Shown piece after piece: positions 13,809 through 18,902 of a DNA stretch of 64,000 nt. Under the pieces are notes generated by a model. The model was given only the letters and a program-made list of their open reading frames with translations, ran no database searches and was not told where the DNA came from. Within the stretch, counting starts at the first letter, position 1. Each line of letters begins with the position of its first letter. Location of the stretch: assembly GCA_963677485.1 (NCBI GenBank), contig OY781964.1:1856001-1920000 (forward strand). The letters are read 5' to 3'. The stretch is from Armatimonadota bacterium (lineage in GTDB: Bacteria > Armatimonadota > HRBIN16). A program made the position numbers and the translations under genes.

Positions 13809-15023
13809 ATGCCTGATGTTATTTATCCAAACTACAAACCGACAGACCCCGATGCACAGGTGATTCTGCAGGAAGACGGACGGATACGCATCGGGATATG
13901 CGATGAATCGGCTCACGAGATCGCGCGGTGCTGGGTATTCGCACGGCATATCGCCATCGGCAAAGCGCGCACCGGAATGGGCGGGATCAGCTACGTCTCA
14001 ACCGATGAGGAGCACCGCATGAAGGGGCTTGGCCGCCGCCTAATGATGGAGACCAACCGGTTCTGCCAGAGTGTGGGCATGGGCATCATCATGCTCTACG
14101 GCATACCCGACTATTACCCCAAATTCGGATATGCGGTCTGCGGGCCGGAATACCGCGTGGAGCTGCACAACCCCGATGTCCACGCAAAACTGCCGGAGGG
14201 CTGGAGCAGCCGCGAGGCGGAAGTGGAAGACCTGCCTGCCATCAGGGCAATCTACCGGCACTGGCTGGATAAGGGCTGCTGCGGAGCTCATGACAGGCAA
14301 AGTAATCTGGACCCCGCCTGGCTGAGCCTGGAATATGACTGCATGAGGCACAACATCGACGAATGCCAGCTGGTCTGTTCACCGCATGGCGATGTCGAGG
14401 GTTATGCATGGCACTGCCGGAGCAACAACTTTATAGTTGGGGCCGAACAGCAGGAGCCGGAAACCCTGGTGTGGGGTGAGGTGATGGCCCTTAACCCTGC
14501 GGCCGCCGATGCAGTGGTGGCCGTCTGCCAACAGCTCATGACCATCATAGGGTTATTGACGGACCGCAACCTCAGCAAGATCACCTTCTCCATTCCGCCG
14601 CATGGCGAGGTGGCCAACGCGCTGCGATGGGGGCACAGCCGCTTCCGGCACGACTTCCAGAAGGACGCCTGGTTTATGTCACGCTGTGCGGATGTCGGCC
14701 AGTTGCTGAAAGATATGCTTCCAGAATTTGAGTTGCAGTGTCGCCATCAAGGCGTGCTGGAGGCCCGGCTGGTGATCAGCGTCGATGGCTTACAGCACCT
14801 GCTGACGGTGCATCAGGGGATTTTCAACTACGAAAAGTGTATCAGCCAAAAGCCAGACCTGGAGTTGAGCAGCGGGCAACTTTCGCAGCTTGTGCTGGGT
14901 GCCTACACGGTCGATGAATTTTATTCTCGGCAGATAGTCAACGTCAACCCTGAGGTGATCAATATCTGCAAGGTTCTGTTCCCGAAGCGGTTTAACCACG
15001 TGTTTGTGCGAGACAGGTTCTAG
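13809..15023 (+). CDS. GNAT acetyltransferase, Eis-like (tandem GNAT + SCP-like tail)
   Basis: GGISYVSTDEEHRMKGLG, YYPKFGY, ~400 aa, C-terminal LSQLVLG. Confidence 0.8.
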   Translation: MPDVIYPNYKPTDPDAQVILQEDGRIRIGICDESAHEIARCWVFARHIAIGKARTGMGGISYVSTDEEHRMKGLGRRLMMETNRFCQSVGMGIIMLYGIPDYYPKFGYAVCGPEYRVELHNPDVHAKLPEGWSSREAEVEDLPAIRAIYRHWLDKGCCGAHDRQSNLDPAWLSLEYDCMRHNIDECQLVCSPHGDVEGYAWHCRSNNFIVGAEQQEPETLVWGEVMALNPAAADAVVAVCQQLMTIIGLLTDRNLSKITFSIPPHGEVANALRWGHSRFRHDFQKDAWFMSRCADVGQLLKDMLPEFELQCRHQGVLEARLVISVDGLQHLLTVHQGIFNYEKCISQKPDLELSSGQLSQLVLGAYTVDEFYSRQIVNVNPEVINICKVLFPKRFNHVFVRDRF

Positions 15024-15431
15024 CCGTCGCCCTGTATCAACGGATACACCTTAACACAATGGCGCAAGGGGGTAAAGACGCAAAGGGGAATGGTTGTGGG
15101 CACCGCGCACGCATCGCGTGCGGTGCCCGGGTTAGGGAAAACCTGCGCGGAGATCGGTAGATACTGTGGCTTTTGTCAAGTCCCCAGGGGCAAATCTGGG
15201 GATTTGGACCTGAATATCAGACACTGGCTCTAGACCACGTAGAATAACGTTAATGTGATGTTTGTGGCATATAGACCAAACCTGGATCCGCGACAGAAAC
15301 AGGCTCAGATGGCATCAGTTGGTCCGTAGCACCTCACATGACGCTCGGAGTCGCGAACGAACGTGCGACATCTTCGTGGCTTCGAAAGATATCGTTATGC
15401 TTCGATGCGTGCTATCGGCAGACTGCCGCAG

Positions 15432-16708
15432 CTAGGATACTGGTGTCAGAACCCTCGGTTTGTTGCCCACCCGACTGCGCGATGGCCGGTTTCGGGATGC
15501 GGGCCGACCACCGCCGGCAGGAGTGGGCTCATTGGTGGGATTTCCATCCACGCATCCCCGTCTTGGAACGCTCACGTCCAGCCCAGGATCATTGCCTACA
15601 CCGGCTATATCATGGGCCGCTCCGGCACGATCCTGGACATGTCCGTTCGCGTCGGTCAGCGGTTGCTGGTTGGCCGCATTTGAAGCTTGTTCGATGCCGA
15701 AGTTTGGATCATATGGCTGACGGCTGATTAATACCGACCACATGAGCACCAGCTGCTTGCGCATGATTGCGCACCGGACAACTCGCTTGGACTTCGGTTT
15801 CTTATTGGGATTCTTTACCAAATTCGGATGCTGCAGTTCCTTCACGAAGTCGTGCATGCTCTGGCCAAGCTTTTTCGACTTACCGTTGACCATCTTCACC
15901 ACAGTGCTCGATCCACAGTAGAGTAATGTCCGCATATATCGGTCACCCATCTTGGATATGGAGCCGTCGTATGTCTTGCAGCTTCCTGACCGTTGCGGGC
16001 AGGGGTTCATTCCGAAATAGCGCGCGACCGCTTTCGATGTTTCAAATCGTTTAGCATCACCGATTTTCGCAAGGAAATAGCTTGCTGTGACGTCGCCGAT
16101 ACCCGGAATGCTCTTCAGCAGAGCCATATCTTCGGTCATCTGCGGTGAACTCATCACAAGCTCTTTGATCTGAACATCAAGCTTTTTGATGCCCATGTCA
16201 TGAAAAGCGATCATCTCGTCCAGCACTGTGCTCCGCGTAAGCCGACAGCTTTGGCGCTGGGCGATCGCCTCATACGGCGGTCATTGGTGTAACCAATAAG
16301 CGCATCATAGCATGCTAGACGAGGGACATAGAGTGAGACATTGTGACTTTTCACATAGTCAGCGATTAGCACGCTGTCAGAGCAGTCCGTCTTTTGTTCC
16401 CAGCCTTTGGCTTTGCGGTGATAGAGAACCCGTTTTGGCTCCAGTTGGACAGCATCGTGCTGGTGCTCGTAGAGGTAATCAAGCAGCGGTCGGCTGTAAG
16501 GCCCGGTGGCTTCAGCCGCATACAAGGCGGGAGTTCGGGTAAGCTTCTTCACCCATGACAACAACTCCTTGTATCCGGCCTTGTTGTTCTTGAACTCCTT
16601 ATGGTCTATCGGCTTGTGCGATGAACCTAATACAGACGCGTCAAACGTCAATTTCGAGATGTCGATCCCGACATAATGGATGTAGATTTTGTCTTCAACT
16701 TCGTGCAT
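15432..16708 (-). pseudogene. IS110 DEDD recombinase/transposase, frameshifted near 16230-16280
   Basis: N-part (ATG 16708 after GGAG): VGIDISK, AAEATG, KTDCSD. The C-part is in another frame: SIPGIG, YFGMNP, QRSGS, ISKMGD, AIMRK. Confidence 0.85.
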
Positions 16709-16741
16709 GTGGTAATCTCCAGTTGGTAGTGATTGATGGTG

Positions 16742-16940
16742 CAATCAACCAAATCAGCCTAGCGAACACGGGGTTTTCTCCCAAGATACTGTTCGATATG
16801 GGTTGATTGGGAGAAGGATGCCTATCTACGTCACGGTGTTTTCCACCAGGGGCGGTTCCGGCATCCAATCCTTCTCCTTCACCCCCAGCTAAGGGGTGAG
16901 ATTAGCTCCCCGACTGCTTTTGGTGTCCGGGGAGCTCACC
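16742..16940 (-). ncRNA. Predicted IS110 bridge RNA
   Basis: Two 5' hairpins, then a target-binding loop (stem 16877-16860/16822-16810; guides GAACCGCCCCT and GTAG) and a donor-binding loop (stem 16809-16801/16750-16742; guides ACAGTATCT and CTAG). The guides match the actual flanks and ends. Transcript boundaries are approximate. Confidence 0.8.
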
Positions 16941-17225
16941 ATATATAGCGTACTAGGGGCGGTTCGCGAACCGCCCTTCTTGCATGCGCCACGATCACCC
17001 GTGGTTGCCCACCATTACCATCGGTCCTATCCGTCGCATCCGTCGAATTCCCGGATTGTCTGAACCGCGGATGAACACGGATGGACGCGGATGGGGAGGG
17101 AAATACCAATCGGGAGATTGGCGTGCCCAGGGCGGTAGGCTATCCCGTAATTCGGGGAATCCGTACACTTTGGCGCCCGAACCCGCCATAATGAAGATGG
17201 TAGGTCACCCCATATCGGAGGAAAC

Positions 17226-17468
17226 ATGAATTTCATCGTCTGGATCGTCATTGCGGCCATCGTCTACAACCTCATTACAGGCAACGGGCAGAAGAACGCG
17301 GGTATTCTCATATTGGGCATGATGGCTATTGTTCTGCTGGTGGTGGGAATGGTGGCTGTCAGAATCGCCTCTGTGTTGTTCCCTGTGGCTATTGTGGTTG
17401 GGCTCATCTATGTGGGCACACGCTACCTTGGCGGCGGCGGCAAGGGCGGCGGGTATTTCCCTAAGTAA
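17226..17468 (+). CDS. Small hypothetical membrane protein
   Basis: RBS GGAGG, three hydrophobic segments, Gly-rich tail. Confidence 0.7.
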   Translation: MNFIVWIVIAAIVYNLITGNGQKNAGILILGMMAIVLLVVGMVAVRIASVLFPVAIVVGLIYVGTRYLGGGGKGGGYFPK

Positions 17469-17492: not shown

Positions 17493-18902
17493 ATGTCTCA
17501 GACTCTCAAATTCGGCACGGATGGCTGGCGCGCGGTCATGGCCAAAGATTTCACCTTCTCCAATGTGGCCGTCGTGGCTCAGGCGATCGCAGATATGCTC
17601 ATCAAGAAGGGCACCGCCTCCAAGGGCGTGTTCATCGGGTATGATGCCCGGCTGCTGAGCGACCTGTTCGCCCGCACCGTGGCTGAAGTGCTGAGTGCCA
17701 ACGGAATCCCTGCGCTGCTGCCGGATCGTGATACCCCTACCCCGGTCACAGACTACACCATCAAGGCACGCGACCTTGCCGGTGCGGTGATGCTGACCGC
17801 CAGCCACAACCCGGCGCAATACAACGGCATCAAATTCCTGCCAGATACCCTGCACCCCGCTCTTCCCGACATCACCGATGTGATTGAGCAGAACATCTCC
17901 AAGCTGCTGATGCAGCCGTCACTGGTCAAAAGCGACGTCAACGATGCGCTGATTCAGATGATCGATCCCCTGCCCGACTACTTTGAGGCTCTGCACAAAC
18001 TAATCGACACCAGCGCGCTGAAGGGGCTGAAGGTGGTTTTTGACCCGCTATACGCCACCGGCCGCGGATATGTGGACCGCTTCCTGCGTGAAGTGGGCGC
18101 CGATGTGGTGACCATTAAAGGCGAGTGGAACCCGGGTTTCGGCGGCAAGATGCCCGACCCCAACACCGCCAACACCCGCGATCTGGCCGCCAAGGTTCTG
18201 GAGCTTGGAGCGGCCATCGGCCTGGCAAATGACGGCGATGCGGACCGCTTTGGTGTGGTGGACGACGACGGCACCTGGCTGAGCCCCAACAAAATCATCG
18301 TTTTGACCATGAACTATTTGATCCACAAGCGGAAGCCACTGAGCGGGGACGTGATTCGTACCGTGGCCAGCACCCACCAGATTGACGCTTTGGCGAAGGC
18401 GCATGGGGCCATCAAAGTCACCGAAACGCCTGTGGGCTTCAAATGGGTGGGCAGCGAAATGGCCCGTCTGAACGCGCTGGTCGGCGGCGAGGAGAGCGGC
18501 GGTCTGAGCATCATGGACCACATCCCTGAGAAGGACGGCATCATGGCGGACATTTTGATGGCGGAGATGGTCGCCGCCACCGGCAAGAGCTGCGGTCAGC
18601 ACCTGAAGGAAATTGAGGCGATCACGGGTGAGTTTGTCTCGGGCCGCATCGACATCCATATCGATGAAGCCAAGAAGAACATCATGATGTCGGAACTGAA
18701 GCAGAACCCGCCCAGCCATTTCGCCGGGCAGGACGTGATCAAAACCGACACCCGCGACGGGGTGAAGCTCTGGCTGGCCGATGGCAGTTGGGCGCTCATC
18801 CGCGCCAGCGGCACCGAGCCGATGGTGCGCGCCTACGCTGAGGGCAACAGCGCCCAGCGTCTGGCGGAAGTGCAGCAGGCCATCCGCGCAGAGCTGGGGT
18901 AG
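17493..18902 (+). CDS. Phosphoglucomutase/phosphomannomutase family
   Basis: FGTDGWR, TASHNP, DGDADR, GEESGG, RASGTEP. Confidence 0.95.
   Translation: MSQTLKFGTDGWRAVMAKDFTFSNVAVVAQAIADMLIKKGTASKGVFIGYDARLLSDLFARTVAEVLSANGIPALLPDRDTPTPVTDYTIKARDLAGAVMLTASHNPAQYNGIKFLPDTLHPALPDITDVIEQNISKLLMQPSLVKSDVNDALIQMIDPLPDYFEALHKLIDTSALKGLKVVFDPLYATGRGYVDRFLREVGADVVTIKGEWNPGFGGKMPDPNTANTRDLAAKVLELGAAIGLANDGDADRFGVVDDDGTWLSPNKIIVLTMNYLIHKRKPLSGDVIRTVASTHQIDALAKAHGAIKVTETPVGFKWVGSEMARLNALVGGEESGGLSIMDHIPEKDGIMADILMAEMVAATGKSCGQHLKEIEAITGEFVSGRIDIHIDEAKKNIMMSELKQNPPSHFAGQDVIKTDTRDGVKLWLADGSWALIRASGTEPMVRAYAEGNSAQRLAEVQQAIRAELG

Follow-up and report, generated by a model that had tools for sequence, protein, structure and literature searches.

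An IS110-Group Insertion Sequence and Its Copies

The DNA analysed here (the window) is a stretch of 64,000 nucleotides (nt), positions 1,856,001 to 1,920,000 of contig OY781964.1 from an Armatimonadota bacterium (assembly GCA_963677485.1; host genome G000, 5.22 Mb in a single contig), and our subject is an IS110-group insertion sequence on its minus strand, designated type A, together with a bridge RNA that the left end of this element is predicted to encode. Window coordinates are used for all parts of the element, which are as follows.

15159–16956, minus strand: whole IS110-group element (type A), 1,798 bp with the CT core counted at both junctions
16742–16940, minus strand: predicted bridge RNA, with a predicted start just past the candidate -10 box and extending through the donor-loop stem
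16211–16708, minus strand: N-terminal part of the recombinase with RuvC-like DEDD domain (PF01548, E 4.9e-20), running into a frameshift
15432–16226, minus strand: C-terminal part of the recombinase in a shifted frame, with the Tnp domain carrying the catalytic Ser (PF02371, E 1.9e-22) and a tail of about 90 amino acids (aa)
16957–16976, minus strand: target, a perfect 20-nt palindrome GGGCGGTTCG/CGAACCGCCC resembling repetitive extragenic palindromic (REP) sequences; the CT directly 3′ of it is the insertion point

Twelve copies of type A were found in the host genome, 98.6–100% identical and with the same ends; 22 alignment columns vary among them, 16 of which represent a single 16-nt deletion, and the leader is identical in all 12 (0 variable columns in 16954–16709). 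Every copy has the left junction ...CCCCT|AGTACGC and the right junction ACAGTATCT|A. G003, a genome of the same genus, is without type A and presents at the orthologous locus an empty site, GAACCGCCCCT|ACCGATCTCC (also GAACCGCCCCT|ACCGATCTCCGCG), which reads ...AAGGGCGGTTCGCGAACCGCCCCT ACCGATCTCCGCG..., that is, left flank, a single CT and right flank. Because the empty site contains only one CT between the two flanks, the boundaries and the CT core of type A are fixed to the base; CT is present at both junctions, with no further target duplication in the 12 copies or at the G003 empty site. Matches at E up to 1e-40 were obtained in two of the 18 genomes of the order that were searched, namely G000 and G003, the latter containing only a related element (type B, described below); type A was found in no other of these genomes. 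The left end comprises 246 nt (16954–16709), while the right end extends approximately 270 nt past the stop codon at 15432, or approximately 540 nt if the tail of the open reading frame (ORF) is counted as non-coding; a left end clearly longer than the right end, which is typical but not defining for the IS110 group, was not found in type A. A GC/GC pair, which may correspond to the subterminal inverted repeat of 2–3 bp mentioned by Durrant et al. (PMC11208160), flanks the donor in type A and in part of the type B elements, those of the host genome not being among them.

The recombinase gene starts with the ATG at 16708; in 10 of the 12 copies it is intact and specifies a protein of 430 aa (P0001). 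A 16-nt frameshifting deletion adjoining 16271 is present in the window copy and in one other, because of which the window copy cannot make its own recombinase; a collapsed assembled contig retains the 16 nt that are deleted here. An earlier interpretation of this locus, made from the letters alone (the sequence-only reading), had called for a repaired recombinase in a recombination assay; with the intact protein encoded by 10 copies, such a repair is not required. The best solved relatives of P0001 are the transposases of IS621 (8wt6, E 2.5e-28) and ISCro4 (9t56, E 5e-26), and its residues D16, E66, D108, D111, and S246 align to D11, E60, D102, D105, and S241 of IS621 (named as in PMC11208158), thus covering all five catalytic residues. 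Its closest protein relatives (P0002–P0006) share 61–95% identity with it. Judged from the near-identity of the copies and the 10 intact ORFs, the type A family appears to have been recently active.

Guide Segments in the Leader and Their Matches

The following parts are predicted in the left end, all of them ahead of the recombinase gene and in the same orientation.

16904–16936, minus strand: 5′ hairpin 1
16879–16899, minus strand: 5′ hairpin 2 (CACCCC/GGGGUG)
16810–16877, minus strand: target-binding loop, with outer stem 16877–16869/16818–16810, inner stem 16863–16860/16822–16819, and inner hairpin 16847–16835
16848–16856, minus strand: left target guide ACCGCCCCU, 9 nt including the core, matching the flanks
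16826–16829, minus strand: right target guide GUAG, complementary to CT plus AC
16824–16825, minus strand: target-loop handshake guide AU, read against the IS621 handshake rule
16742–16809, minus strand: donor-binding loop, with outer stem 16809–16801/16750–16742 and inner hairpin 16782–16770
16784–16792, minus strand: left donor guide ACAGUAUCU, identical in sequence to 15167–15159 of the right end
16759–16767, minus strand: right donor guide GU/UC/GCUAG, 9 nt, with discontiguous pairing to CTAGTAC (16956–16950)
16757–16758, minus strand: donor-loop handshake guide GC, read against the same rule

The 247-nt leader presented a minimum-energy fold of -88 kcal/mol (z = -3.30; 0 of 200 shuffles as stable), in which two 5′ hairpins are followed by two long stem-loops whose internal loops contain the four guide segments. 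A pairing of 5′ hairpin 2 with distant 3′ sequence, proposed by RNAalifold for the whole leader, was dropped in favor of the local hairpin of the single-sequence fold. The target loop is arranged in the order UGCC stem, GGA, ACCGCCCCU, inner hairpin GGUG-GAAAA-CACC, GUGAC, GUAG, and AU, and the donor loop in the order ACAGUAUCU, inner hairpin, GU, GU-UC-GCUAG, and GC.

All four guide segments match the DNA of the target or of the element ends. On the minus strand, GAACCGCCCCT at 16858–16848 is identical over 11 nt to the left flank plus CT at 16965–16955, two extra 5′ bases (GA, 16858–16857) extending the match of the left target guide to the flank of the window copy; GTAG at 16829–16826 is the reverse complement of CTAC at 15160–15157 (core plus right flank); ACAGTATCT at 16792–16784 is identical over 9 nt to the right end plus CT at 15167–15159; and CTAG at 16762–16759 is the palindromic complement of CT|AG at 16956–16953. 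The sequence-only reading had reported these four matches and two 5′ hairpins; each match was found again at the same minus-strand position, in agreement with the 12 insertions and the empty site, and both hairpins (16936–16904 and 16899–16879) are present in the minimum-energy fold. Its right donor guide, CTAG, is indeed complementary to CT|AG but is only part of the full 9-nt guide GU-UC-GCUAG, which is followed by the handshake dinucleotide. This full guide pairs with 5 + 2 bases to seven donor bases, with UC looped out and one G.T wobble. As for the handshake guides, both bases of AU pair with donor positions 6–7 (AT) and neither pairs with target positions 6–7 (CC), while in GC the first base, G, is complementary to C at target position 7 and the second is unpaired.

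With a GC content of 54% and many CCCC-bearing REP-like repeats, the genome offers some ground for attributing the matches to chance similarity in GC-rich sequence. However, of 20,000 shuffles of the 246-nt left end, 20 produced a match of at least 9 nt to the flank end, 17 did so for the right end, and three produced matches of at least 7 nt to both, as compared to the observed 11 and 9 nt. Chance is also contradicted by the covariation described below, and the matches sit exactly at the loop positions expected from IS621; we therefore regard it as hardly credible as an explanation.

Target Sites in the Host Genome

All 12 insertions belong to a ...GCCCCT^AC class at the foot of REP-like or other GC-rich hairpins; the palindrome family adjoins 10 copies at its 3′ foot, and two copies are located next to other GC-rich hairpins. 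The left flank, taken as the nine bases ending in CT, presented no mismatch to ACCGCCCCT in six copies, one mismatch in five, and three in one, while the right flank starts with AC in 11 copies and with AT in one. For the three bases that precede GUAG, the flanks of the 12 copies offer no conserved partner, indicating that the right target guide is of the short, 4-nt form. The resulting 11-bp specificity is ACCGCCC-CT-AC. The 9-mer CGCCCCTAC is found at 228 sites in G000, as compared to approximately 60 expected, mostly at REP-like hairpins, and nine perfect 11-bp sites are implied, six of them occupied and three (ACCGCCCCTAC) empty. As read from these sequences, the recombination substrates of type A would be ACAGTATCTAGTAC as donor and ACCGCCCCTAC as target.

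The left flank of the window copy (16957–17140) is part of a dispersed repeat of approximately 180 nt that ends in the targeted hairpin; sequence like it is found beside other type A copies, and G003 contains approximately 50 partial matches. REP-like hairpins ending in CCCCT and followed by AGTACGC without an element were found at five sites in G000 (C1 264919, 1990837, 2010706, 2382964, and 3436712) and at seven sites in G003, which is without type A; a control with the reversed pattern gave 0 matches. These sites could be a native variant of the repeat (CCCCT-AGT-ACGCG, where CCCCT-ACGCG is the common form) or old footprints of the element.

Covariation of Stems and Guides in Related Elements

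Type B elements, which carry their own bridge RNA, are present in G000 as two copies (G000:C1:1296596–1298386 and 2667677–2672037; L025, L028, and L029), in G003 as nine copies, and on metagenome contigs L109–L111; the G000 type B protein shares 45% amino-acid identity with that of type A, and the second G000 copy contains approximately 2.5 kb of foreign DNA inside its recombinase gene. One type B-like locus in G003 (L032, G003:C1:5014979–5018512) contains a tandem of two copies, with a distance of 2,274 bp between their left ends and a near-identical copy of the target hairpin next to each. Across these sisters, the guides change together with the DNA that they face. The left target guide CGCGCCCCU is found beside the flank CGCGCCCCT; the guide GUCAUCCCU is found beside GTCATCCCT at six of nine G003 left junctions (eight loci), the other three being one base off; and GUGGCCCCU beside GTTGCCCCT and CGUGCCCCU beside CATGCCCCT each match at eight of nine positions, the mismatch in the latter being one that would form a G.T pair. 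The type B left end is TGTATGC, and its right donor guide is AU-UU-ACAAG for CTTGTAT, so that the change from GU..GCUAG to AU..ACAAG tracks the change in left end from AGTAC to TGTAT. In type B, 5′ hairpin 1 occupies the same place with a different sequence, while the sequence of 5′ hairpin 2 is conserved.

Five sequences were used to build a first covariance model, which covers the two loops, and a second model followed the first round; searches covered 99 of 114 loci, the remainder being further G003 copies (L031–L036 and L039) and L076, L102, L116, L124, L125, L127, L128, and L137. At E up to 1, the first model matched 7 of the 95 loci outside its training set, each match lying just upstream of a recombinase ORF, and the second added 4 of 89 loci at E up to 0.1, including an IS621-like element of Brenneria; most of the distant IS110 left ends are out of reach of these narrow models. 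In the window, the match lies at 16741–16880 on the minus strand (141 bits), 33 nt upstream of the ATG at 16708, and the bridge-RNA covariance model found no second copy in the right end. The genome and metagenome scans that supplied the 114 loci yielded type-B-like and distant ones only.

Among 16 aligned sequences, 94.5% of cells pair and 27 of 28 pairs have changed on both sides; none of 500 shuffles reached the observed values, and slid controls paired in 34–54% of cells. The four helices of the target loop (helices 1–4) are paired in 84–100% of cells with compensatory changes in all pairs, and the donor-loop stems correspond to helices 5–7 of the same alignment. At the own right end, approximately 1–1.6 kb downstream, 12 of 15 relatives contain a second occurrence of the donor-loop 8-mer (matching in at least 7 of 8 nt), as compared to 7 of 154 comparisons with foreign guides. 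A left-flank match was obtained for few rows only among distant relatives, because the element boundaries are unknown there.

The repeated 9–11-mers might alternatively be double-stranded DNA sites, such as subterminal repeats bound by the recombinase, with no RNA involved; the same sequences do occur at the ends and inside the left end, like the subterminal repeats of other transposons. However, the stems around them covary, and G.U pairs are found on the minus strand only (UG in 13 of 16 sequences at pair 125–148, and GU in four at pair 126–147), both of which point to RNA. The 3′ guides are, moreover, complementary and not identical to their DNA, and the homologous IS621 system has been shown to be RNA-guided (PMC11208160, PMC11208158). 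DNA sites of this kind are thus a very improbable account of the repeats.

Candidate Promoter and Expression

Two candidate promoter boxes were identified at opposite ends of the element.

15174–15179, minus strand: candidate -35 box TTGACA of the right end, whose last base lies 15 nt ahead of where the CT core ends
16947–16952, minus strand: candidate -10 box TACGCT, in the left end

Read across the junction of a circular form, these boxes give TTGACA-17-TACGCT, and the type B ends give TTGACA-17-TATGCT; a TTGAC(A/T) box ending exactly 15 nt before the core end is also present in L131, L119, L118, L038, and L140. No circle junction was found in the assembled contigs of sequencing runs. One unusual X16 contig joins 15128 to 16956 with 13 other letters between.

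Leaders of relatives 90–97% alike are covered by contigs of three metatranscriptome runs from two studies; the gaps that contigs of the RNA runs leave in their coverage of the element are uninformative. Since a short RNA and an mRNA leader are not separable in such contigs, they would also accommodate a structured leader that acts only as a cis-regulatory 5′ untranslated region (UTR) for translation of the recombinase, as for the ISPpu9 leader, the matches having no guide role; the start codon follows the donor-loop stem at a distance of 34 nt, and a translation-inhibiting leader structure has been reported for ISPpu9 (PMC12288879). A 5′ UTR function would leave unexplained that loop changes in sister elements track flanks and ends while the stems are kept, as well as the base-for-base agreement with the IS621 guide layout. 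As the sole role of the leader it appears improbable to us; a role in the 5′ UTR and a guide role are not mutually exclusive.

Assessment and Proposed Cycle

Taken together, the guide-to-DNA matches, the exact insertion site, the covarying fold, and the recombinase homology lead us to conclude, with a probability of roughly 0.9, that the bridge RNA of an IS621-like insertion sequence of the IS110 group is encoded at 16940–16742 on the minus strand. The IS621-type bispecific layout put forward in the sequence-only reading is upheld by the agreement among fold, guide order, recombinase homology, and guide/target and guide/donor covariation.

Several observations weigh against this conclusion. 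The recombinase gene of the window copy is broken; two insertions are exceptions to the target pattern, c12 having three mismatches to the left target guide and c3 having AT, not AC, on the right; and Rfam gave 0 matches at E up to 1 for 14800–17400 on both strands. Stem covariation was assessed on an alignment fitted to the model, a procedure that favors the structure. The candidate -10 box agrees with the consensus at only three of six positions, and the metatranscriptome contigs run past the left end into the flank and carry no strand, start, or end information. Finally, a promoter scan of the integrated state found no consensus promoter on the minus strand; this absence fits the published IS621 model as well as a report that IS621 loci express their bridge RNA only weakly (PMC13626964).

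By analogy with IS621, which underlies what follows on transcription, RNA–protein binding, and catalysis, the element would excise as a circle, and joining of the right end to the left end would put the TTGACA -35 box 17 nt upstream of the TACGCT -10 box. From this junction promoter an RNA of approximately 200 nt would be transcribed and would bind the DEDD/Ser recombinase. The first internal loop is predicted to pair with the target ACCGCCC-CT-AC at the 3′ foot of REP-like hairpins, with the left target guide ACCGCCCCU pairing to the bottom strand and the right target guide GUAG to the top strand, while the second loop may pair with the circle junction ACAGTAT-CT-AGTAC via ACAGUAUCU and the split GU..GCUAG; recombination at the CT core would then insert the element. 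The window copy, which is without a functional recombinase but has a perfect bridge RNA and ends, might be mobilisable in trans by the 10 intact copies.

Bridge RNAs have been known as a class since 2024, and type A represents a clean natural example of a known mechanism; knowledge of the mechanism itself is unchanged. The locus documents a bridge-RNA system with unusual completeness from sequence alone, through 12 insertions, an empty site, co-changing sisters, and a defective copy with a perfect RNA; as an orthologue from a little-studied lineage, it could serve as comparison material for engineering bridge recombinases.

A Conserved Hairpin in the 3′ Extension of the Recombinase ORF

The only part of the element that could lead to something new is a hairpin specific to the type A/B clade.

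15536–15683, minus strand: conserved imperfect hairpin, 148 nt, inside the 3′ ORF extension (also at L003:2843–2990, L025:2512–2659, and L030:2521–2668)

The extension of approximately 90 codons is conserved in types A and B, and it is, together with the bridge RNA, the only region that a DNA search detects between the two types (approximately 71% identity for the extension). Its substitutions by codon position amount to 0.37, 0.42, and 0.39 per site, with no third-position excess, as compared to 0.42, 0.38, and 0.62 in the core of the gene. The sense strand of the hairpin folds at -65 kcal/mol (z = -3.62), while the antisense strand has a z of -1.32. Among five sequences, four of them close to one another, 94.8% of cells pair (slid controls, 24–37%) and 7 of 50 pairs are compensatory, a covariation that is suggestive but not conclusive. 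The hairpin model matches element copies only, namely 14 in G000 and nine in G003, these being two of the 151 genomes sampled from the phylum; across 100 sources (the window and 99 loci), the sole match outside types A and B is a weak one (E 0.3) in L119. To our knowledge, no second RNA component of this kind has been described for IS621-type systems. We raise only tentatively, and regard as doubtful, the idea that, in addition to its bridge RNA, the type A/B clade uses this hairpin as another functional RNA element; it could then be an accessory or regulatory RNA, acting, for example, in recombinase dosage, mRNA 3′ stability, or protein binding.

At the stop codon, the motif CAGTATCCTAG (15432–15450, minus strand) is similar to the circle junction CAGTATCT|AG apart from an additional C and is not conserved in type B; this is probably a coincidence, although the motif may be a relic of an older right end. 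Adjoining the element is a gene of the phosphoglucomutase family (17493–18902), which falls in a 90%-identity cluster whose sole named member comes from an Armatimonadota metagenome-assembled genome.

Comparison with Known Systems

Among the papers listed in searches of the literature on IS110, IS621, bridge RNA, and Armatimonadota, none deals with this element, although it may be included in the supplementary tables of Durrant et al. In 2024, covariance models predicted bridge RNAs in 85.7% of the IS110-group elements in ISfinder (PMC11208160).

The closest described system is IS621 of E. coli (Durrant et al. 2024, PMC11208160; Hiraizumi et al. 2024, PMC11208158), which, like type A, has a left-end RNA upstream of a DEDD/Ser recombinase on the same strand, a CT core, a target loop followed by a donor loop, and a REP-type hairpin as target. 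The target loop of IS621 is described as a stem, a 3-nt linker, a 9-nt left target guide, a 1-nt linker, and an inner stem-loop, followed by 5 nt, the right target guide G77–G80, and the handshake guide A81 and U82 (PMC11208158); the 9-nt left target guide, the 4-nt right target guide GUAG, and the AU handshake are common to both elements. Its donor loop contains the left donor guide A123–C130 and a right donor guide with A157–U158, flipped-out U159 and U160, G161.dT12, and C162–G165, followed by the handshake guide G166 and U167, of which only the first base pairs in the wild type (PMC11208158). In type A, too, the right donor guide is split, two of its bases being looped out and a G.T wobble falling at donor position 12; type A also has G residues where syn-G residues are described for IS621 and shares donor positions 6–9, 11, 12, and 13 (A, T, C, T, G, T, and A). 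The candidate -35 and -10 boxes of type A occupy the right and the left end, respectively, as do those of IS621.

The two elements differ in several respects. The different target specificity that the sequence-only reading had proposed applies to the left target guide (ACCGCCCCU in type A), which is what is new relative to IS621, but not to the right target guide, which is GUAG in both; the AU handshake is likewise unchanged. Donor positions 10 and 14 are A and C in type A and T and T in IS621, and the left donor guide pairs both core bases in type A, whereas IS621 has A131 at the last position. Before the target loop, type A has two hairpins over approximately 63 nt, while IS621 is described with a single 5′ stem-loop of 33 nt, its target loop starting from nt 34 (PMC11208160, PMC11208158). 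The recombinase ORF comprises 430 aa in type A and 326–328 aa in IS621, and the alignment of the two spans only residues 10–274 of the 430. A right end at least as long as the left end and the conserved 148-nt hairpin also set type A apart from IS621.

Type B shares with type A the RNA architecture, including both 5′ hairpins, the right end ACAGTATCT, the 3′ ORF extension, and the 148-nt hairpin, but its proteins (387–401 aa) are only 42–45% identical at the amino-acid level, and it has other left target guides and targets. ISPpu9 and ISPpu10 of Pseudomonas putida (PMC12288879, 10.64898/2026.03.19.712850) are, like type A, IS110-group elements that insert into REP sequences, and ISPpu9 is reported to have extra small RNAs beside its bridge RNA, including one located downstream of its transposase gene. 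Unlike type A, ISPpu9 is described as recombining at AG and as having no hybrid promoter, and its Ssr9 as a separable unit resembling a miniature inverted-repeat transposable element (MITE); the 148-nt hairpin differs from Ssr9 in that it is embedded in the ORF extension and was found in element copies only. Elements of the IS1111 group, finally, have a recombinase of the same family and a long structured right end, as does type A, but their guide RNA is described as lying in that right end, whereas type A has a complete two-loop RNA in its left end.

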